From positions 1 to 64,000 of the forward strand of contig CAZWVL010000008.1 of assembly GCA_964637115.1 (NCBI GenBank): a DNA stretch of 64,000 nucleotides, given 5' to 3'. This document shows positions 45,605-59,020 of the stretch, piece by piece; position 1 is the stretch's first letter; every line of letters begins with the position of its first letter. The stretch comes from an uncultured Methanosarcinales archaeon (lineage in GTDB: Archaea; Nanobdellota; Nanobdellia; Woesearchaeales; ARS49). The notes under the pieces are model-generated. The model ran no database searches and was not told the origin of the DNA. It saw only the letters and a program-made list of their open reading frames with translations. A program made the translations under genes and the position numbers.

Positions 45605-45829
45605 GCAAACTAAAAGTTCTCATGTTCGGATGCTCATCAAACCTTTGCAAAAGGTTTGATCTAAAGCACTCAAGCGGGATTTCCGCTGCGCTACAATCCC
45701 GCGACATGTCGGAAATGCTTTGCATTTCCGAGCATGCTCGGAAATCTTTGATTTCCGACATACCAAAAGCCGTCCCGGCCGCATGGGAGGCAAGAACATG
45801 AGCAAACTAAAAGTTCTCATGTTCGGATG
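45601..45829 (+). mobile_element. 165-bp multi-hairpin insertion flanked by a perfect 32-bp duplication of the GT4 gene start
   Basis: ATGAGCAAACTAAAAGTTCTCATGTTCGGATG at 45601-45632 and 45798-45829; four hairpins and a new GGGAGG RBS in between. Confidence 0.8.
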
Positions 45830-47015
45830 GGAATTCCCACCATTCAAATCAGGAGGACTAGGAACAGCATGCTATGGACTGACAAAAGGACTGGCGCGAA
45901 ACGGGTGTGAAGTAACATTTGTCATGCCAGTAACGCCAGAAGGAGCAAAAGCCAAGTTTGTGAAATTGGTTGGCTCTTCCAACATTGCAAGGAACGTCAA
46001 AATAAGAAAAGTCGAAAGTCCGCTGATGGCGTATATGACTTCATCATCTTATGAAGAACACATAACAATCAGCGGCAACAAGAAAAAACACGTCTACGGA
46101 AGAGACTTGTTTGAAGAAGTGCAGCGTTATGCAGCATTGGCAAAATACATTGCAAAAGAAGAAGAGCATGATATCATCCACGCACACGACTGGATGACCT
46201 ATCAGGCAGGCATAAATGCGAAAAAAGCCAGTAAGAAGCCGTTGGTTGTGCATCTGCACGCAACAGAATTCGACAGAACAGGAGAAAATCCAGACGACAG
46301 AATCAGCCACATAGAATGGCTTGGACTAAAAGAAGCAGACAGAATAATCACGAACAGCAACTACACAAAACAAAACATCATCAAGCATTACAAGATACCG
46401 GCAGAGAAGATAGACGTCGTGCACTGGGGAATTGATGATGTTGACGTTCCATCATTTGACACGCCTCTCAAAAAAGATAAGATAGTGCTCTTCCTGGGAA
46501 GAATAACACTCCAGAAAGGACCGGACTATTTCATAGAAGTAGCCAAGAAAGTTCTTACATACGAGCCGGATACGAAATTCGTCATTGTGGGAGACGGAGA
46601 CATGCTGCCACGCATAATTAATCGCGCGGCAGAACTTGGAATAACAAACAAAATCATCTTCACAGGTGCGTTGTCAGGAGACGATGTTCATAGAGCATTC
46701 AAGACAGCAGACATCTATGTAATGCCAAGCGTCTCAGAACCATTCGGACTTGTTGCACTTGAAAGCCTGAAAAACGGCACTCCAGTCATTATAAGTAAGC
46801 AGAGCGGCGTGGCAGAAGTGCTCAAGCACGCGCTTAAAGTAGACTTCTGGGATATTGATGAAATGACCAACAAGATTGTGGCAGTGCTCAGGCATCAAGC
46901 ACTCAAAGAGGAACTGAAAGAACACGGCATGCACGAAGTGCAAAAGTTCAACCTTGACGAGCCAGCACGAAAAGTAAGAGACACGTATCATCACGTCCGA
47001 GGTGAGCACGCATGA
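45798..47015 (+). CDS. GT4 glycosyltransferase (glycogen synthase-like)
   Basis: MFGWEFPP..SGGLG, HAHDWMT, FLGRITLQKG, MPSVSEPFGLVALE. Confidence 0.92.
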   Translation: MSKLKVLMFGWEFPPFKSGGLGTACYGLTKGLARNGCEVTFVMPVTPEGAKAKFVKLVGSSNIARNVKIRKVESPLMAYMTSSSYEEHITISGNKKKHVYGRDLFEEVQRYAALAKYIAKEEEHDIIHAHDWMTYQAGINAKKASKKPLVVHLHATEFDRTGENPDDRISHIEWLGLKEADRIITNSNYTKQNIIKHYKIPAEKIDVVHWGIDDVDVPSFDTPLKKDKIVLFLGRITLQKGPDYFIEVAKKVLTYEPDTKFVIVGDGDMLPRIINRAAELGITNKIIFTGALSGDDVHRAFKTADIYVMPSVSEPFGLVALESLKNGTPVIISKQSGVAEVLKHALKVDFWDIDEMTNKIVAVLRHQALKEELKEHGMHEVQKFNLDEPARKVRDTYHHVRGEHA

Positions 47016-48229
47016 CTGACGTCTGCCTCTACTTCCAAGTACACCAGCCATTCAGACTGGCACGATACACGCTCTTTGATATTGGAAAACACTCAAGATA
47101 CTTTGACGAAGCAAAAAACAAAGAAATAATGCTCAAAGTAGCGCGAAAATGCTACCTGCCAACGAACAGCATAATCAGACAGCTTATTGCGAAACACGAC
47201 GACTTCAAAGTAACGTACAGCATAACTGGAAGCGCGCTTGAACAATTTGAAAAATACGCACCCAACGTATTGAGAAGTTTCAAAGAACTTGCAGAAACAG
47301 GAGCAGTTGAATTCCTAACAGAAACAAGCAACCATTCACTCTCCGCGCTTGCGGATAAAGATGAATTTACTTCACAAATAAAAGAACACCAGAAATTAAT
47401 CAAGAATTACTTTGGACAAAAGCCCAAGATATTCAGAAATACAGAATTAGTTTACAATAATGAGATTGCCAAAACTGCAGAACAACTTGGTTTCAAAGGC
47501 ATACTCGCAGAAGGATGGGACTCAATACTAGGATGGCGAAGCCCCAACTACGTCTACAAGGCAGCAGAAACGCGCAAAATGAGATTGCTGCTCAAGAACT
47601 ACCGGCTTTCAGATGATGTGGCATTCAGATTCTCCAATAAACACTGGAACAGCTGGCCATTAACAGCAGAAAAGTACGCAGGATGGATAGCGCCCATACT
47701 CGGAGACAGCATCAACCTGTTCATGGACTATGAAACATTCGGAGAGCACCAATGGGAAGACACAGGAATATTCAACTTCCTCAAACACTTGCCGGCTGCA
47801 CTGAAGAAACACAACATAAGCTTCAAACATCCCAGCGAACTGCTGAAAATACGGCCAAAAGAAGAACTCGACATCCAGCAGACAATCAGTTGGGCAGATG
47901 TAGAAAGAGATACGAGCGCATGGCTCGGCAACAAAATGCAGCAAAGCGCGCACGCACAGATTTACTCAATTCGAAAAGACGTGCTTGCAAGCGGAGACAG
48001 AGAATTACTTGCTTCGTGGAAAAAACTTACGACAAGCGACCATTTCTACTATATGTGCACCAAATGGTTCAACGATGGAGACGTGCACAAATATTTCAGC
48101 CCATACGATACCCCATATGACTGCTTCATCAATTACATGAACATATTGCAAGATATGACGCTCAGACTCAAAAATAAACAAGGACTGTTTGAGTCCATTA
48201 AAAGATTTGTCAAAGAGGTGAAGTTATGA
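47012..48229 (+). CDS. GH57 family alpha-amylase
   Basis: FQVHQP, FRNTELVY, NLFMDYETFGEHQW, TTSDHFYYM. Confidence 0.92.
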   Translation: MTDVCLYFQVHQPFRLARYTLFDIGKHSRYFDEAKNKEIMLKVARKCYLPTNSIIRQLIAKHDDFKVTYSITGSALEQFEKYAPNVLRSFKELAETGAVEFLTETSNHSLSALADKDEFTSQIKEHQKLIKNYFGQKPKIFRNTELVYNNEIAKTAEQLGFKGILAEGWDSILGWRSPNYVYKAAETRKMRLLLKNYRLSDDVAFRFSNKHWNSWPLTAEKYAGWIAPILGDSINLFMDYETFGEHQWEDTGIFNFLKHLPAALKKHNISFKHPSELLKIRPKEELDIQQTISWADVERDTSAWLGNKMQQSAHAQIYSIRKDVLASGDRELLASWKKLTTSDHFYYMCTKWFNDGDVHKYFSPYDTPYDCFINYMNILQDMTLRLKNKQGLFESIKRFVKEVKL

Positions 48230-48603
48230 AACGAACAAAACAAAGACGCGTCAAATCAAAAATCAGGAAAACAAGACCTTCCCACAAGCCAAAAACAACC
48301 GTACACGTGACCATAACACGAAAAGTTTTAGGCAAAACACCGGAAAAATACAGTTTCAACCTGCCAGACGGCAGAAAACTGAGAAGCGTGTATGAACTGA
48401 TAGACGAATTAGAGACTATGAGTGAGGAAAACTTCAGGCATTACGTGACTGAAACAGAAAACCACTTTGCCAACTGGATAGAACACGTGTTCAGCGAAAA
48501 ACACCTGGCAAATGAACTGAGGCACGTAAAAAACAGGATAGACACGCAAAGAGCGATTTTGAAACATCTTGTAAGAGAACTCATGAAAAAGGCACACGCA
48601 TGA
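48226..48603 (+). CDS. DUF5752-like domain protein with basic N-tail
   Basis: F.L.DGRKLRSVYEL..EL..M....F.H.V....NHFANWIEHVF...LA. Confidence 0.6.
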   Translation: MKRTKQRRVKSKIRKTRPSHKPKTTVHVTITRKVLGKTPEKYSFNLPDGRKLRSVYELIDELETMSEENFRHYVTETENHFANWIEHVFSEKHLANELRHVKNRIDTQRAILKHLVRELMKKAHA

Positions 48604-49169
48604 ACTTACGCGACGTTCCGCCAGAAAATGAATTTGTACTAATCGGCGGAAGAAAAATCAAGAATATCGCTGAATTAGGCAGAGAACTCAGGCAGATGAG
48701 CGATGACATGTTCGCGCATCACGTCACGGAACAGAAAAACGACTTTGCCAACTGGATAGAAAAGTGCGTAAAGGATGAAACATTGGGAATATTAGCACGA
48801 ACGACAAAAGACAAGGAACGCATGGCAGCAATTGTTGAAAGAAGAATCAAAGAACTAACACAGCCAAAAATCATCAGAACCGCACAGCAGACAATGCAGC
48901 AGCCAAGCATTGTCAGAACAAAAAATGTGACCATGCTTAAGTTTGCGCACGAACAAATGCCTGCCATAACAAAACCTCAAAAGCAAATAATACACACACC
49001 GCACAAAACGGTGCTCAAACTGCAGCACGAACAGCCATTAAAAACTGAAATTTACGTTCACGAGGTTAACAAACACCACCACGGGGCAGCATTGCTAATA
49101 GCGCATTTAGTGCTCGGGATTGTCGTAGGAGTAGCAATCGCTGCCCTGGTGCTGGCGTTTAATACATAA
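48600..49169 (+). CDS. DUF5752-like domain protein with C-terminal TM
   Basis: F.LIGGRKIKNIAEL..EL..M....F.HHV....NDFANWIEKCV; C-terminal hydrophobic helix. Confidence 0.6.
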   Translation: MNLRDVPPENEFVLIGGRKIKNIAELGRELRQMSDDMFAHHVTEQKNDFANWIEKCVKDETLGILARTTKDKERMAAIVERRIKELTQPKIIRTAQQTMQQPSIVRTKNVTMLKFAHEQMPAITKPQKQIIHTPHKTVLKLQHEQPLKTEIYVHEVNKHHHGAALLIAHLVLGIVVGVAIAALVLAFNT

Positions 49170-51198: not shown

Positions 51199-51508
51199 GC
51201 CGATTTTAGTATATATTACTGTGCCAGATGAAAAGGACGCGGAAATGATAGGCGCAGCATTGGTAAAGAAAAAACTAGCTAGCTGCGTGAACATTATTTC
51301 TAACATTCACTGCCAGTATATCTGGAAAGGAAAATTCCAGCACGATAAGGAAGCAGTAATGATGGTGAAGACTTTTGACACGAAATACAAAGCATTGGAG
51401 AAAGTCGTTAAGAAAATTCATTGTTATGAAAATCCGTGCATTGTTGCAATGCCGATAACAAAAGGAAGCAAAGAATATCTATCTTGGAGTAGGAGGGCAG
51501 TAAAATGA
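51194..51508 (+). CDS. cutA: CutA divalent-cation tolerance protein
   Basis: VYIT, LASCVNI, YIWKG, HCYENPCI. Confidence 0.92.
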   Translation: MKPILVYITVPDEKDAEMIGAALVKKKLASCVNIISNIHCQYIWKGKFQHDKEAVMMVKTFDTKYKALEKVVKKIHCYENPCIVAMPITKGSKEYLSWSRRAVK

Positions 51509-52020
51509 CTTTTTGGAGAACTTTAGAATATACACTAATCTGTATGCTTTTGTTTAGCGTAATACTCTCATTATCATTCATGGAAATACGCACATTTTTT
51601 ATCATAGTGAGTTTGCTTGCAGGACTGGTCTTCTACTATCTTTTCAAAGAAATGCCAACAGATGAAGCAATGCAAGAAATCAGCATTGTCTACATTCCAG
51701 CATCCATCGTGGTTATCATTGAAGGCATGTTTACAAATCTGATGAAATATACTATTGAAACGGCAGCATCATTACGACCCGATCCTCAAATTGGATCGCT
51801 TGCGACGATATTTGCACAAAGAAACATAATATTCGAGCTAATAGTACTTCTAGTCGGACTTTTCGGCCCATTCATAGCATTCAAGCTGTTAAAAGCCCAA
51901 CAAATAGAATACAAAAGACTTATTTGGAATATTGCAGCCGTATTCATCGCATACTTAATCGCCCTTCTTATTGTTACCTTTGTCATCATGCCCAGATTGA
52001 TAGGAGGAGCGCCATTATGA
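51505..52020 (+). CDS. Multi-pass membrane protein
   Basis: Several hydrophobic segments. Confidence 0.7.
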   Translation: MTFWRTLEYTLICMLLFSVILSLSFMEIRTFFIIVSLLAGLVFYYLFKEMPTDEAMQEISIVYIPASIVVIIEGMFTNLMKYTIETAASLRPDPQIGSLATIFAQRNIIFELIVLLVGLFGPFIAFKLLKAQQIEYKRLIWNIAAVFIAYLIALLIVTFVIMPRLIGGAPL

Positions 52021-52460
52021 AACAAACAGTGCACATAGGAGCAGACCACGCAGGATTTGTATTAAAAGAACACCTGAAGAAGTTCTTGCAGAAGAAAGGC
52101 TACACTGTGAAAGATTTGGGAGCACACAAACTCATCAAAGGAGACGATTATCCAGATTATGCAGAAAAAGTTGCGAAAGCCATCCAGAGAGGAGGAAAAG
52201 GAATACTTCTTTGCGGTTCAGCAGAAGGAATATGCATAGCAGCAAACAAATTCAGAAAAATCAGGGCAGTACCAGTCTGGACGCTGCAAAATGCGAAATT
52301 AAGCAGACAGGACAATGACGCGAACATATTGTGCCTGAGCGGATGGGAGCTTTCAAAGAAAAAAGCAGAACAGATTTCATTAACTTGGCTGAAAACGCCA
52401 TTTTCAGGAGAAAAAAGGCACGTTCGAAGAATCAAGAAGATAGCGAGATTGGAAAGATGA
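52017..52460 (+). CDS. rpiB: Ribose-5-phosphate isomerase B
   Basis: GADHAG, DDYPD, CGSAEG..IAANK, NDAN, RHVRR. Confidence 0.95.
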   Translation: MKQTVHIGADHAGFVLKEHLKKFLQKKGYTVKDLGAHKLIKGDDYPDYAEKVAKAIQRGGKGILLCGSAEGICIAANKFRKIRAVPVWTLQNAKLSRQDNDANILCLSGWELSKKKAEQISLTWLKTPFSGEKRHVRRIKKIARLER

Positions 52461-53071
52461 CAGAGATAATTCCAGGAATACTGGTGCACACACTGAAAGA
52501 ACTCAAGCAAAAACTGCACTTATTGAGCTGGGCAAAAAAAGTGCATATTGACATAATGGACGGTAAGTTCGTTCCAAACAGGACAATATCGGCATTAACA
52601 CTGAAGAAGGCAATACCTAAGATGGACATGCAAATACATTTGATGGCGTACAAACCACACAAATACGTGAACATTTTTTCAAGAATGGGAGCAAAAGAAT
52701 TGATCATTCATGCAGAAGCGTCAAAAGAGACGCCAAAAGTGCTTGAATACATCCGCGAAAAAGGAATGAAAGCAGGAATTGCATTCAACCCAGAAACAAA
52801 AATAGGACAGCACGCGCTTATTCATGCAGATTTGGCGCTCGTGATGACGGTGCATCCAGGATTCAGCGGGCAGACGTTTTTGAAAACGCCTGTACGAAAG
52901 ATTGCAGAGATAAAAAATCACAATCCACTGCTTCAAGTGGGTGTTGACGGAGGAATTAATTCGCAAACGTGCAGATTTGTCAAAGAAGCAGATTTTGCTA
53001 TTGCAACACACGCTGTTATAGAAGCAGAAGAACCAAGAAAAGCGTGGCTTGAACTCAAAAAAAGATGTTAA
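52457..53071 (+). CDS. rpe: Ribulose-phosphate 3-epimerase
   Basis: HIDIMDGKFVPN, IHLM, MTVHPGFSGQ, VDGGIN. Confidence 0.93.
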   Translation: MTEIIPGILVHTLKELKQKLHLLSWAKKVHIDIMDGKFVPNRTISALTLKKAIPKMDMQIHLMAYKPHKYVNIFSRMGAKELIIHAEASKETPKVLEYIREKGMKAGIAFNPETKIGQHALIHADLALVMTVHPGFSGQTFLKTPVRKIAEIKNHNPLLQVGVDGGINSQTCRFVKEADFAIATHAVIEAEEPRKAWLELKKRC

Positions 53072-53072
53072 A

Positions 53073-53810
53073 ATGGACTTACAGAAAAAAGCAAACATAA
53101 TCCGGCAAGACATTATCAGAATGATAAGCCGGGCAGGCAAAGGAAACACGGCGCCAAACTTGGGCATGGCAGACATATTTGCCACACTATATTTCGGAGC
53201 GTTAAAACACAATCCAAGACAACCAAAATGGGAAGAGCGCGACAGACTATTTGCAGCAGGCCAATATTCACCAGCCTGGAGAACAACATTAGCGCATTCT
53301 GGATATTTCGCAAAAAAAGACTTGTTTCAAGGGAGCCAGCACACCATGCCAGGAAGCCTTGGCTTGGCTGTCGGCAGCGCGCTCGCAGCCCAAATAGACG
53401 GCAAAGAACACCAAACTTACTGCATCTTAAGCGACCACGACCTGCACAAAGGAGAAGCGTGGGAAGCACTATTATTAGCGGGAAAACATAAACTTGCAAA
53501 TCTAACTCTCATAATCGACAGAAGCAATATGCAATCAGACGGATATATTGAGAACATAATGCCTCTTGAGCCATTGCGCAGCAAACTTGAATCATTCAAC
53601 TGGAACGCCATTGAAGTAGACGGCCACAACCACCAGCATATCAAAGAGGCAATAACAGAAGCCAAAAATTCGCATAAACCAACAGTAATTCTTGCCCACA
53701 TCATACCCGGAAAAGGAGTTAATTTCATTGAGAACAAAACTGAATGGTACGAAAAACCTCCAACAAAAGAAGAAGAAAGCGCAGCATTAACAGAGTTACA
53801 AAAACAATGA
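53073..53810 (+). CDS. Transketolase N-terminal subunit homolog, catalytic motifs degenerate
   Basis: Scaffold conserved (RDR, GSLG, AWEA, LEPL..K..SF.W...EVDGH, GKGV) but GH to GN, SKGH to AAGQ, GHP loop deleted, GDGE to SDHD, WHG to WYE. Confidence 0.85.
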   Translation: MDLQKKANIIRQDIIRMISRAGKGNTAPNLGMADIFATLYFGALKHNPRQPKWEERDRLFAAGQYSPAWRTTLAHSGYFAKKDLFQGSQHTMPGSLGLAVGSALAAQIDGKEHQTYCILSDHDLHKGEAWEALLLAGKHKLANLTLIIDRSNMQSDGYIENIMPLEPLRSKLESFNWNAIEVDGHNHQHIKEAITEAKNSHKPTVILAHIIPGKGVNFIENKTEWYEKPPTKEEESAALTELQKQ

Positions 53811-54913
53811 AAACAAGCAAAGACGGATACGCAGAAGCACTTACAGAGCTCGCCAAACAAAAAGAAGACATGGTTGTGCTAAGCGCAGATACTGCTCTGA
53901 AAACAGGCATCAAGCATTTTGCCGACAAGCACCCAAACAGATTCATCCAGTGCGGCAAGGCATCACAAAATATGATGAGCGTAGCAGCAGGAATGGCAAT
54001 GGAAGGCAAAATAGCGTTTGCAACAGGCTGCATAACAATGGGAAAAAACTGGGACCAGATACGAATGATAGCACACGAAAGATTAAACGTCAAAATTGTA
54101 GATGCAGACGAAACACTCGAGGATACTGCATTAGCACGCGCACTGCCAGCCATGACCATAATTATTCCAGCAGACTACAATGAAGCAAGGAAAGCAACCC
54201 TGGCAGCAGGAACAATGAAAGGTCCTGTGTATCTAAAGCTGACAAATAATTCATCCGTAACCACTGAAAAAACGCCATTCACAATAGGCAGAGTAGAAAT
54301 ACTGCGCGCAGGAAAAGACTGCACCATACTGGCGTGCGGTTCAGCAGTAAAGGAAGCACTGCTCGCTGCTGAAAGACTTGCACAACAAGAAATAGAATGC
54401 ACCGTGCTTAACTGCCACACAATACAGCCGATAGACAAACACGCAATAATCAGCAGTGCACGCATAACTGGATGCATTGTTGCAGCAGCAGAAAGCAATG
54501 CACTTGGAAGCATAACAGCAGAAATAATAAGCCAGAACTCGCCAGTGCCCTTTCGCACAGCACCAGCAGAGCAATCAAACATTGCCAGAGCAGCCAAAGA
54601 AGCAGTACTGCTAAAATGCGAAGGTGTTTGCCCAGAAATCCCTGAAGAACACGGCAAACTACTCGTTTCCCAAATTCATCCAGAATCATACTTCAAACTG
54701 CACGGCGGCGGAACAATCAAAAGCATACCAGGATTAAAGAAAGCACTATTGGAAATGAACAACGAAACATTCTCGCACCACTGCAACGAACACAAAAACG
54801 ACTTCAGCATATGGGTAGAAGACGTTTTCAAAGAACCAACACTCGCACACCAGATTGAAAAAACAAAAACACGCGTTGGAATGGCACTAACCATCACAAG
54901 GTGGCTGATGTGA
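53807..54913 (+). CDS. Transketolase C-terminal subunit homolog, degenerate, fused to a DUF5752-like domain
   Basis: VLSAD, QNMMSVAAG, GPVY, TI.PID retained; GIAE to GKAS; GEDGxxHQ loop deleted; extra domain at about 54680-54910. Confidence 0.85.
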   Translation: MKTSKDGYAEALTELAKQKEDMVVLSADTALKTGIKHFADKHPNRFIQCGKASQNMMSVAAGMAMEGKIAFATGCITMGKNWDQIRMIAHERLNVKIVDADETLEDTALARALPAMTIIIPADYNEARKATLAAGTMKGPVYLKLTNNSSVTTEKTPFTIGRVEILRAGKDCTILACGSAVKEALLAAERLAQQEIECTVLNCHTIQPIDKHAIISSARITGCIVAAAESNALGSITAEIISQNSPVPFRTAPAEQSNIARAAKEAVLLKCEGVCPEIPEEHGKLLVSQIHPESYFKLHGGGTIKSIPGLKKALLEMNNETFSHHCNEHKNDFSIWVEDVFKEPTLAHQIEKTKTRVGMALTITRWLM

Positions 54914-55593
54914 AAATAGCCGTCTATGGAAAAACACCGGAAAGCAAAATAGAACTGCTAAAAGCAGCCAAGAAAGCAGGATTTACTTATGATGAGAAAA
55001 AGCCAGACTTAGTCATTTCTTACGGCGGAGACGGAACTTTCCTCTGGGCGGAAAGAAAATACCCAGGAATTGCAAAAGCGCTTTTCAGATACAGCAAAGT
55101 CTGCAAAAAATGCCACAACCTGCCAATCGATCATGCACTTTCGCTCATCAAAAAGAAAAAATACAAGATAATAACTCACAACAAACTCGAAGCAAGAGTT
55201 GACAAGACAACATTGCTGGCGACAAACGACATTGTTGTCAGAAATGCCATGCCAACCCACGCAATACGATTCAAACTTGAAATAAACGGCAAAAAAATCA
55301 ATGAAGAGTTTATCGGCGACGGCATTGTAGCAGCCACGCCATTCGGCTCAACAGCCTATTTCCACAGCATTACCAAAAAAACGTTTGAAAAAGGCATTGG
55401 AATTGCTTTCAACAATACCACAGTGCTGCAAAAACCGCTTTTATTACCGGAAAAAGCACGCGTACTGCTGACATTAACACGCGGAGAAGCATTCGTAGTA
55501 GGAGACAATGAGCCAAGAATGATCGTATTAACACCTGGAAAAAGCGTTACGATAAAAACAAGCCAACAAAAAGCAAAACTGTTATCTTTCTAA
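54910..55593 (+). CDS. nadK: NAD kinase
   Basis: GGDGTFL, ND, GDGIVAATPFGSTAY; GTG start overlaps the previous stop. Confidence 0.9.
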   Translation: MKIAVYGKTPESKIELLKAAKKAGFTYDEKKPDLVISYGGDGTFLWAERKYPGIAKALFRYSKVCKKCHNLPIDHALSLIKKKKYKIITHNKLEARVDKTTLLATNDIVVRNAMPTHAIRFKLEINGKKINEEFIGDGIVAATPFGSTAYFHSITKKTFEKGIGIAFNNTTVLQKPLLLPEKARVLLTLTRGEAFVVGDNEPRMIVLTPGKSVTIKTSQQKAKLLSF

Positions 55594-57411: not shown

Positions 57412-58059
57412 ATGAACACCCCACGACAGCCTTGGGAACAAGACCCAGACAAATGGAAAGGAAAGCCAGAACACCACTCATTTTCCACGATGCGCTCTAA
57501 AGATGTCGGCAGACTGACTGAAAGAAACAGGAAGTCAGTTCTTGACTTGCTCACGATAAATGACGTTGAACTGCCGCAATTAATTGCTGAAGGAAAAGTA
57601 AAACCTAAAACAGTCGTCACGTACTCACGCGTTGAATGGGGTGTTGAAGGAAACAAAGTAGTTCCCGTAAGTGAAACAATACTTGCACGCGCAAACCTGT
57701 ATGACTTATCGCAATGGGGCAAAACACACTGCATTGGCGTCGGCAGATATCAGGAGAATTTGTTCAAGCCGTGCACAAACGAAAATGGTGTAGATAGACT
57801 CATCTCACGAGAACACGGATTAGTATTGCTTATCAAAGATGGAAAAAGAAAACCTGGCATGCATTACCACGACATCGGCACACAACATAAAGGAAGCACA
57901 AATGGCAGCTACCTCAATGACAATTTCGGCGTTCATAACCTAGTCATGCCCTGGGAAGAAGGGGATTACATAAGCATGGGCAATTACCGCATACTTGAAA
58001 ATAAAAACGTCAGAAACTTCAGACTGCGCTACAAGACACTGGGTGAAAAGGATGTATAA
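57412..58059 (+). CDS. FHA-domain protein
   Basis: IGVGR...ISREH...D....GSTNGSYLN, the G-R, S-R-x-H and S-T-N-G FHA motifs in order. Confidence 0.72.
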   Translation: MNTPRQPWEQDPDKWKGKPEHHSFSTMRSKDVGRLTERNRKSVLDLLTINDVELPQLIAEGKVKPKTVVTYSRVEWGVEGNKVVPVSETILARANLYDLSQWGKTHCIGVGRYQENLFKPCTNENGVDRLISREHGLVLLIKDGKRKPGMHYHDIGTQHKGSTNGSYLNDNFGVHNLVMPWEEGDYISMGNYRILENKNVRNFRLRYKTLGEKDV

Positions 58060-59020
58060 CGTTCTAGCTAAATATCCCATGCACTTGTTCTCAGCAGCGC
58101 CAAACGCGAAAACAGGATATCACCGCGTTTGGATTAGAGACAACATTTACACGCTTTTTGGCCTGGAAGCAAAAGGCGATTATACAGCTTCTGTAAAAAC
58201 AGTACACGCACTGATAGACATTCTGAAAAAACATTCTTACAAAATAGACTGGATGATAAAACAGCCGCATCCTAAAGATGGCCACAGATACATCCACCCA
58301 AGATACGATGAAAACGGAAACGAGCTTTCTGAACCATGGGGATGGAAACAGAATGATGCAATTGGAGCGCTTTTATGGAAGATTGGAACATTAGACAAAA
58401 AAGGAAAATTTGAATGGAGAGAAGGCGACAAGGAAATCGTGCAGAAACTTGTTAATTATTTACAAGCAATCGAATACTGGCACGACAAAGACAACGGAAT
58501 GTGGGAAGAAGCAGAAGAAGTGCACGCAAGTTCAGTAGGAGCGTGCCTGGCAGGATTATTGGCAGTTGACCATATCGTTCACGTGCCATTGCACCTGATA
58601 GCACACGGAGAGCACACTTTGAAAACATTATTGCCAAGAGAAAGCGTTACAAAAGAAACGGACATGGCACTTTTATCATTAATCTGGCCGTACAACATTG
58701 TAACAGCACAAGAAAGAGAATTAATTTTGAAAAACGTAGAAGAATTAGTCAGAGAAAAAGGACTTATCAGATATTCTGGAGACTTGTATTACAGCAAAGG
58801 CAAGGAAGCAGAATGGACAATGGGATTCCCATGGCTGGCAATCATTTACAAAGAACTCGGCTCAATGAACAAATATTATTTTTACCTTAACAAGACAAAA
58901 AGTGCTTTGAATCAAAAAGGAGAACTGCCAGAACTTTATTTCGGCGGAACATCAACACATAATGAAAACACGCCGTTGGCGTGGGCGATGAGCCTGATGG
59001 CGGTAGCTGAAAAATGCTGA
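58052..59020 (+). CDS. GH15 glucoamylase-like glycoside hydrolase
   Basis: VWIRDN, QNDA.G, GMWEE, ASS, GLIRY, LPELY, PLAWA. Confidence 0.85.
   Translation: MYNVLAKYPMHLFSAAPNAKTGYHRVWIRDNIYTLFGLEAKGDYTASVKTVHALIDILKKHSYKIDWMIKQPHPKDGHRYIHPRYDENGNELSEPWGWKQNDAIGALLWKIGTLDKKGKFEWREGDKEIVQKLVNYLQAIEYWHDKDNGMWEEAEEVHASSVGACLAGLLAVDHIVHVPLHLIAHGEHTLKTLLPRESVTKETDMALLSLIWPYNIVTAQERELILKNVEELVREKGLIRYSGDLYYSKGKEAEWTMGFPWLAIIYKELGSMNKYYFYLNKTKSALNQKGELPELYFGGTSTHNENTPLAWAMSLMAVAEKC

Follow-up and report, generated by a model that had tools for sequence, protein, structure and literature searches.

A stretch of 64,000 nucleotides (nt) from an uncultured Methanosarcinales archaeon (contig CAZWVL010000008.1, positions 1 to 64,000; placed in the Woesearchaeales by the GTDB lineage and, by the names on close homologues, in the Woesearchaeota, a group of DPANN archaea), which we call the window throughout, encodes both subunits of a split transketolase (TK) that, judged from its residues, is very probably dead for transketolase chemistry. 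The N-terminal subunit (N', 245 aa, 53073..53810, + strand) is a homologue of the transketolase PP domain, recognised by Pfam and by pairwise and multiple alignment. The C-terminal subunit (C', 368 aa, 53807..54913, +) consists of a Pyr-like domain, a TK_C domain, a linker and a tail resembling the protein OrfY, as read from Pfam, alignment and an AlphaFold2 (AF2) model. The two genes are linked by an ATGA stop/start overlap (53807..53810, +). The best overall explanation for them is a long-lived pseudoenzyme that is kept as a non-catalytic adaptor; we hold this with moderate confidence, because a well-supported pseudoenzyme status has to be weighed against an adaptor mechanism that we infer.

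Loss of the active site in both subunits

The window pair belongs to the transketolase-like fold superfamily, outside the functional transketolase family. Among solved structures, both subunits find their best match in Carboxydothermus hydrogenoformans, whose split transketolase (6yak/6yaj) is hit with E 9.5e-47 by N' and 1.1e-40 by C'. In Pfam, N' matches Transketolase_N (PF00456) with 95 bits against a cut-off of 22, and C' matches Transket_pyr (PF02779) with 61.6 bits (cut-off 27) and Transketolase_C (PF02780) with 70 bits (cut-off 25.9). The AF2 model of C' has a mean pLDDT (predicted local distance difference test) of 90.6 and superposes on 6yaj with a template modelling (TM) score of 0.85 and a root mean square deviation (rmsd) of 1.9 Å. 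On the NCBIfam equivalog model NF004559, N' and C' reach 175.5 and 159.9 bits, and the cut-off is 488. An origin from DXS, from E1 or from the sulfo-sugar or apulose transketolases was considered and rejected, because the pair is nested among canonical split transketolases and those other families keep the GDG and Glu motifs.

The catalytic loss was read from 18 positions, 10 in the N subunit and eight in the C subunit, given in yeast numbering and scored against the canonical transketolase of the same genome. We take H30, H69, H103, G116, L118, D157, G158, E162, N187, H263, E418, F442, H469, D477 and H481 to serve the cofactor, the metal or catalysis, and R359, S386 and R528, together with H469, to bind the substrate phosphate. 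In the window pair 17 of the 18 positions are substituted or deleted, in agreement with an earlier sequence-only reading of this DNA, to which the pair appeared catalytically dead. N' lacks H30, H69, H103, G116, L118, G158, E162, N187 and H263, and the metal-binding D157 is the only scored position kept in either subunit.

Aligned to the C. hydrogenoformans structure 6yak, N' reads GN in place of GH, AAGQ in place of SKGH, SDHD in place of GDGE and WYE in place of WHG, and it misses about 21 residues around the GHP loop, where H103, G116 and L118 lie. C', aligned to 6yaj, reads SKD in place of TRE/TRD and GKASQN in place of GIAEQN, and a deletion of about 12 residues takes out the H..GEDG..HQ loop. 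The sequence-only reading had named all of these motif changes and both loop deletions (the first estimated at roughly 20 residues), and all of them are seen in the two alignments. One of its motifs needs to be read more narrowly: the canonical split relatives have SDGE, so the first-place Ser of SDHD is normal for the lineage and only the Gly-to-His and Glu-to-Asp changes count. Four further losses extend its list, with E162 replaced by Lys, N187 by Ser, S386 by Lys and R528 by Asn.

Considered by role, the G-D-G..N motif for thiamine diphosphate (ThDP) and metal (D157, G158, N187) is broken, the window reading S-D-H with Ser at N187, and the cofactor-activating Glu of the AEQN motif (E418) has become the Ser of GKASQN. 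The histidines H30, H69, H103, H263, H469 and H481 read, in this order, Asn, Gln, deleted, Tyr, Asp and deleted, and the phosphate-binding R359, S386 and R528 read Lys, Lys and Asn. Within C', the Pyr-like domain (residues 1-145, 53807..54241, +) carries the changes at R359, S386 and E418 and the deletion of the H469..D477..H481 loop, and the TK_C domain (residues 146-272, 54242..54622, +) carries the change at R528.

One may ask whether the pair is nevertheless an enzyme, either a residual transketolase or a protein with a new, ThDP-independent activity in or near the old pocket. Glyoxylate carboligase, a ThDP enzyme that works without the activating Glu, provides a precedent; the pair is under purifying selection (see below), its metal-binding Asp is retained, and N187, E418 or H30 survive in some orthologues. 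However, both pocket loops are deleted (H103/G116/L118 and H469-H481) and all four phosphate-binding residues are replaced. The same positions also differ among the dead orthologues, H30 being N, H, D, L, Q or P, H69 being Q, H, K or N, and G158 being H, S, E, Y or A. Since the catalytic positions vary freely in this way, the old pocket holds no new conserved site, the opposite of what is expected of a new active site. Human TKT with a deletion of the equivalent N-terminal segment, as in TKTL1, folds, binds no cofactor and is inactive (PMC3485151). We regard continued catalysis as quite improbable.

Descent, distribution and selection of the dead pair

Split pairs were read residue by residue in 35 genomes of the family and order, and the outcome is bimodal. 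Fourteen canonical pairs keep the 10 N and eight C positions with at most two exceptions, while 21 degenerate pairs, namely those of the window genus and of genomes G025, G026, G036, G065, G078 and G086, have lost most of them. In a tree from a quick IQ-TREE search with SH-aLRT support (Shimodaira-Hasegawa-like approximate likelihood ratio test), the dead pairs form one clade with a support of 100, which covers at least five genera. This clade is nested among canonical, tail-bearing split pairs of the same family, with the pair of G022 as its sister, and it persists in a tree built without the 18 trait columns and without the two longest branches. A repeated origin of the dead state was rejected, as one change suffices on the tree at this support, also without the trait columns. 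The split transketolase is the usual type in this Woesearchaeal family, and the ancestor was already tail-bearing.

The sequence-only reading had proposed looking for an intact transketolase elsewhere in the host genome (G000; 1.27 Mb, 27 contigs, 98% complete), and one is found on contig 3. It lies in a frame of about 650 aa on the minus strand (ORF 943-2898 of locus L005, G000:C3:141273-144758). The gene itself takes up about the first 600 residues of this frame; a run of N follows its end, and the final ~50 codons of the listed open reading frame (ORF) are for this reason not real sequence. This full-length transketolase keeps all 18 scored positions, reaches 819.9 bits on NF004559, has human TKT as its best solved match (3ooy, E 1e-182) and is about 33-35% identical to N' and C'. 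A malic-enzyme-like ORF is found beside it.

The distribution of the two types was followed in a family sample of 61 genomes, sorted by Transketolase_N score, with classes checked by residues where the loci were at hand. About 32 of these genomes have a canonical split N subunit, and among them only G089 also has a full-length transketolase. A low-scoring, degenerate split N subunit occurs in 11 genomes (degenerate in every one that was read by residues), and 10 of these 11 carry the full-length enzyme, once as a contig-end fragment; the remaining one, G086, is unclear. Within the genus the full-length enzyme is present in 12 of 14 relatives, and in some genera, and in several family members, it occurs alone without a split pair. 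Because the genomes are relatives of each other, the figures should be read as a pattern, not as a statistical test. The unpublished genomes in the comparison are G010 (one row in the genus tallies, residue tables, dN/dS, tree and RpiB comparison), G023 (one canonical row in the residue table and tree) and G062, G072, G083 and G089 (rows in the family tally), and the conclusions are independent of any single one of them. It is likely that the full-length enzyme has taken over the function of the dead pair.

A history can be proposed on this basis. A full-length transketolase would have joined the ancestral split transketolase of the family; the split copy would then have lost ThDP chemistry once, by deletion of both active-site loops and replacement of Glu, His and Arg residues; and the dead copy would afterwards have been either retained or wholly lost.

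The near-exclusive occurrence of the dead pair alongside a full-length transketolase also suggests another role, in which the pair modulates that enzyme, or RpiB and Rpe, and thereby tunes non-oxidative pentose-phosphate flux in the manner of TKTL1. The position of the pair right after rpiB and rpe fits this idea, and so does the N' deletion, which overlaps the region missing from TKTL1 (human TKT residues 76-113, including His77 and His110; PMC3485151); heterodimers of TKTL1 and TKT are reported in the abstract of PMC6555833. The resident full-length enzyme, however, is of another, human-type subtype with the low identity given above, for which reason a mixed dimer across the subtypes is unlikely, and the dimer interface is built from the PP and Pyr domains, in which the dead clade is least conserved. 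A modulator of this kind seems rather unlikely to us.

Evidence of selection was sought in the retention of the pair and in its substitution rates. The genus has 14 other species-representative genomes, each of which carries a homologue of C', and the order Rpe-N'-C'-NAD kinase is kept wherever the contig allows. The ratio of nonsynonymous to synonymous substitution rates (dN/dS) was calculated by the Nei-Gojobori method (NG86) between species-representative genomes with unsaturated dS (below about 0.6) and ranges from 0.09 to 0.31 across close pairs. For the transketolase part of C' it is 0.09 between G005 and G014, where the tail gives 0.04, and 0.16 between G002 and G008. Values for N' and for the transketolase part of C' are 0.23 and 0.19 (G002-G004), 0.22 and 0.26 (G004-G012), and 0.30 and 0.31 (G002-G012). 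These results bear out the earlier proposal that the open, coupled frames reflect selection and not decay.

The opposite view, in which the two frames are vanishing pseudogenes that stay open by chance or because some weak residual constraint, for instance translational coupling to the downstream NAD kinase gene, still acts on them, draws on the speed at which the pair evolves. Between G000 and G011, N' and C' are 50% and 55% identical, compared with 76% for Rpe and 74% for NAD kinase, and the dN of the full-length transketolase is about half that of the split pair in the same genomes. Losses are also seen: the N' gene of G002 is frameshifted, the C' of G065 has no tail, and the pair is missing from some relatives. 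Against this, dN/dS values of 0.09-0.3 are far from 1, and nearly every one of the 21 genomes has both frames open, even where identity has dropped to about 35-45%. One N' homologue, P0123, is 91% identical. In addition, clade-specific residues are conserved in 95-100% of rows, the tail is highly conserved, and AF2 confidence is high. The pair is relaxed relative to real enzymes, yet clearly under purifying selection, and we find it very probable that it is selected; decay is the least credible of the alternatives, with hardly any probability left to it. The combination of lost catalytic residues, purifying selection and long retention would, at the level of sequence, define a pseudoenzyme.

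The tail, the gene cluster and a possible adaptor role

What selection acts on is suggested by the domains. In the canonical tail-bearing pairs the mean pairwise identity is 0.66 for PP, 0.63 for Pyr, 0.55 for TK_C and 0.34 for the tail, and in the dead clade it is 0.50, 0.42, 0.55 and 0.55, respectively; the rank order within each group is the informative part of these figures, since the groups differ in depth and tails are harder to align. The Pyr-like domain is the least conserved in the dead clade, and TK_C and the tail are the best conserved. Conservation has thus moved from the catalytic domains to TK_C and the tail.

Within TK_C, four residues are specific to the dead clade, Cys172, Cys198, His212 and Cys223 (window 54320-54480, +), and occur in 95-100% of the compared rows; canonical relatives read Val, Ala, Lys and Ala at these sites. 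Their place in the sequence puts them close to the N-termini of three neighbouring, parallel TK_C strands, and they could form a metal site, for which they are candidate ligands.

In our view the tail, which the sequence-only reading did not mention, says most about function. Compared with canonical C subunits, C' has about 50 extra residues, and its residues ~290-368 (54674..54910, +) form an OrfY-like module, equivalent to half of DUF5752. In the AF2 model this module consists of a beta hairpin and five helices (pLDDT about 90-94), joined to the transketolase part by a linker (residues 277-289) of low AF2 confidence. Compared with OrfY of Thermoproteus tenax (4cso), the modelled tail gives a VIA-align Z of 10.2 with an rmsd of 2.0 Å over 83 residues, the next match having a Z of 6.5. 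Foldseek with the tail alone gave OrfY a probability of 0.97-0.99 and returned nothing at E ≤ 0.001. A profile of the module matches both OrfY halves (E 1.6e-4), the signature ..F..H.N...NDF..W.. is common to the tail and both halves, and the Atlas neighbours of the tail are DUF5752 clusters at 0.91. On the predicted structure, the tail has the fold of the OrfY repeat unit. It stays below the DUF5752 (PF19027) gathering cut-off of 23 with 14.6-16.3 bits, as do two small ORFs of the same cluster with 19.2 and 19.3 bits. Each of these matches spans about one half of the model's 208 positions, as would be expected if DUF5752/OrfY consists of two modules in tandem.

Three copies of the module, and no more, occur in the genome, and this cluster contains them all: the tail and two proteins encoded directly after the GH57 gene, a free-standing one of 125 aa with a strongly basic N-terminus (48226..48603, +) and one of 189 aa with a hydrophobic C-terminal stretch (48600..49169, +) that, read by eye, looks like a membrane anchor or helix. 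Six genus relatives have a homologue of the 189-aa protein at a distance of ~4.5 kb upstream from C'. At E ≤ 0.001 the module matches 2458 cluster representatives. Most are short archaeal proteins, and the module occurs free, in tandem, apparently membrane-anchored (several cases) or fused, among others, to KaiC, to HerA-like ATPases with CarboxypepD_reg repeats or to FlaC. The tail is also present on canonical, apparently active split transketolases (G015, G019, G022, G028-G031, G035 and G047), and its fusion is therefore older than the catalytic loss. Retention of the tail is not universal across lineages, since the dead pair of G065 (L034, G065:C7, minus strand; N' 250 aa, C' 231 aa), which is very divergent and follows RpiB and Rpe, is tail-less.

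The surrounding cluster is one of glycogen and pentose-phosphate genes. At its head stand a GT4/GT5 glycogen-synthase-like glycosyltransferase (GT) gene (45720-47015, +) and the GH57 gene (47012-48229, +), which together span 45720..48229. Upstream of the pair are RpiB (52029..52460, +) and ribulose-phosphate 3-epimerase (Rpe; 52457..53071, +), whose stop lies 1 nt before the N' start, and downstream an NAD kinase gene (54901..55593, +) overlaps the C' stop, an order kept in the genus. C' was taken to start at the ATG at 53807, because all orthologues start it at MKT; an ATG at 53744 was rejected as its start for the same reason. Public records annotate homologues of N' and C' as 'transketolase' or 'DXP synthase'. 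Two ORFs without a Pfam match were also observed, one of 171 aa within the sugar cluster (51505-52020, +) and one of 215 aa beside it (57412-58059, +), as well as a GH15-like gene at 57995-59020.

RpiB had been described in the sequence-only reading as having an intact active site, and this was borne out in part. The Cys of CGSAEG and the Asp-His of GADHAG are kept, but a conserved His is Asp: the window reads SRQDNDAN, as against SR(Q/E)HNDAN in 11 of 11 genus relatives. We take this His to be the equivalent of His99 of E. coli RpiB. The change, seen in this genome alone, could be a genuine substitution or a single-base error.

The setting of the modules beside the GT and GH57 genes bears on a further alternative, that the pair is a sensor or gene regulator with a tail that binds nucleic acid or some ligand and a transketolase body that does no more than provide an oligomerisation platform. 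In T. tenax, orfY is reported to be a neighbour of treT. The molecule name that its depositors gave to 4cso is 'ORFY PROTEIN, TRANSCRIPTION FACTOR', and the free module protein of the cluster (48226-48603) has, as noted, a strongly basic N-terminus. Yet no DNA-binding fold was recognised; the structural matches after OrfY are weak (Z 6.5 or lower); many module homologues have an apparent membrane anchor (by eye) or an ATPase fusion, unlike a classical transcription factor; and no paper describing the function of OrfY was found. A sensor or regulator appears unlikely, if marginally less so than a modulator of the full-length enzyme.

We return to the non-catalytic adaptor. According to this model, N' and C' would still assemble as a transketolase-type alpha2beta2 body, and would work through the TK_C domain and both OrfY-like tails. 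Since OrfY itself consists of two modules, one module alone probably requires a second to pair with. For the tails, this may be either of the single-module OrfY-like proteins encoded in the cluster, of which one is free and the other apparently anchored in the membrane. Such pairing would tether some of the glycogen/pentose-phosphate cluster to a location or to a partner. The proposal of the sequence-only reading, a regulatory or scaffolding heteromer, would fit the shift of conservation to TK_C and the OrfY-like tail. An adaptor that acts through these two surfaces is a tentative idea, to which we give clearly less than even chances. Slightly more speculative still is the wider possibility that the pair represents an undescribed ancient archaeal pseudoenzyme family, in which the alpha2beta2 body is dead, TK_C (with its possible Cys3His metal site) and the tails are selected, and the body organises or regulates glycogen/pentose-phosphate metabolism by docking onto the OrfY-like proteins of the operon, both the free and the membrane-anchored one.

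Several observations weigh against the pseudoenzyme and adaptor model, whose support comes from sequence and predicted structure. The metal-binding Asp of the window pair and the N187, E418 or H30 of some dead orthologues are retained, and weak cofactor binding in some members of the dead clade is possible. The full-length transketolase was not found in the genus relatives G001 and G010, whose assemblies are fragmented (95 and 97% complete). Conversely, G089 has a seemingly canonical split pair together with a full-length transketolase, and G045 has a canonical split pair together with two long transketolase-like frames of putative transketolase identity; since both genomes appear to hold both types, coexistence need not end in catalytic loss. 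The long frames of G045 and G089 measure 620-659 aa, with one or two per genome. The pair appears dispensable in some lineages, as some relatives lack it and the N' gene of G002 is broken. That gene (L017, G002:C73, minus strand) carries an exact 37-bp tandem duplication ~110-184 nt into the frame, which shifts the frame after ~49 codons; it is the sole broken copy among the dead pairs, and the duplication may be genuine or an assembly artefact. The group-wise comparison of conservation is confounded by the unequal phylogenetic depth of the groups and the harder alignment of the tails. Finally, the tail cannot be the whole function, because the dead pair of G065 is without it, and the presence of a module says little about a specific partner, because the module is promiscuous.

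Significance and relation to known systems

To our knowledge, pseudoenzymes are well documented in eukaryotes, and clear prokaryotic cases with long-term selection are much rarer. Our literature search found no paper on a dead prokaryotic transketolase and nothing usable on the function of OrfY or DUF5752. From its residues and relationships, the window pair would be a pseudoenzyme of the transketolase fold, in a prokaryotic variant for which we found no published precedent. One archaeal family displays the full trajectory, from canonical tail-bearing split enzymes, through a dead clade beside a full-length transketolase, to the full-length enzyme only. It therefore offers a system for asking why the scaffold of a ThDP enzyme persists after its chemistry is lost, the same question that is argued over for human TKTL1. 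There is a consequence for annotation, too: reconstructions of DPANN metabolism that count the dead pair as a working pentose-phosphate step would be wrong where the full-length transketolase is missed. The uncharacterised OrfY/DUF5752 module is now linked to a defined partner, the transketolase C subunit. If the wider reading of an ancient pseudoenzyme family is true, it would give the first functional handle on this widespread module and a genetically simple microbial parallel to the disputed TKTL1.

Three known proteins resemble parts of the pair. The split transketolase of C. hydrogenoformans, an active enzyme whose solved forms are alpha2beta2 (6yak) and beta4 (6yaj), shares the two-gene architecture and the fold. 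It keeps GH, SKGH, GDGE, WHG, TRE, GIAEQN and the D..SHQ loop, whereas the window pair fails at 17 of the 18 positions, and it has no additional C-terminal domain, whereas C' has the tail. OrfY of T. tenax (4cso), the sole solved structure that matches the module and Pfam DUF5752, has the same fold as the tail; it is, however, a free two-module protein of 216 aa, and the tail is just one module, joined to the C subunit of a transketolase. The third is E1 beta of the 2-oxoacid dehydrogenases, with homologous Pyr and C-terminal domains, the latter of which docks the peripheral subunit-binding domain of E2. Entries 1w85 and 1w88, whose titles name E1 bound to this E2 domain, are among the fold matches of C'. 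By analogy, E1 beta docking may serve as a precedent for a non-catalytic role of TK_C, although E1 beta belongs to a ThDP enzyme that is active, and no E2-like partner is known or was seen for the window pair.

The closest parallel is TKTL1 itself. In both cases a paralogue is kept beside a working transketolase, and a deletion in the PP domain is part of a loss of invariant residues that includes the His of SKGH and the His of GHP. TKTL1 misses both of these, His77 and His110 in human TKT, within its missing segment (PMC3485151); in N' the deletion takes out the equivalent of the His110 loop, and the equivalent of His77 is substituted. The archaeal pair has gone further, having also lost the activating Glu, the second (Pyr) loop and all phosphate-binding residues. 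It differs as well in being split into two genes, in its extra OrfY-like domain, in its independent archaeal origin, and in standing at about 33-35% identity to the resident transketolase, where TKTL1 is 61% identical to TKT. With these differences in mind, the window pair is a natural microbial counterpart of human TKTL1, with the full-length transketolase probably doing the chemistry.

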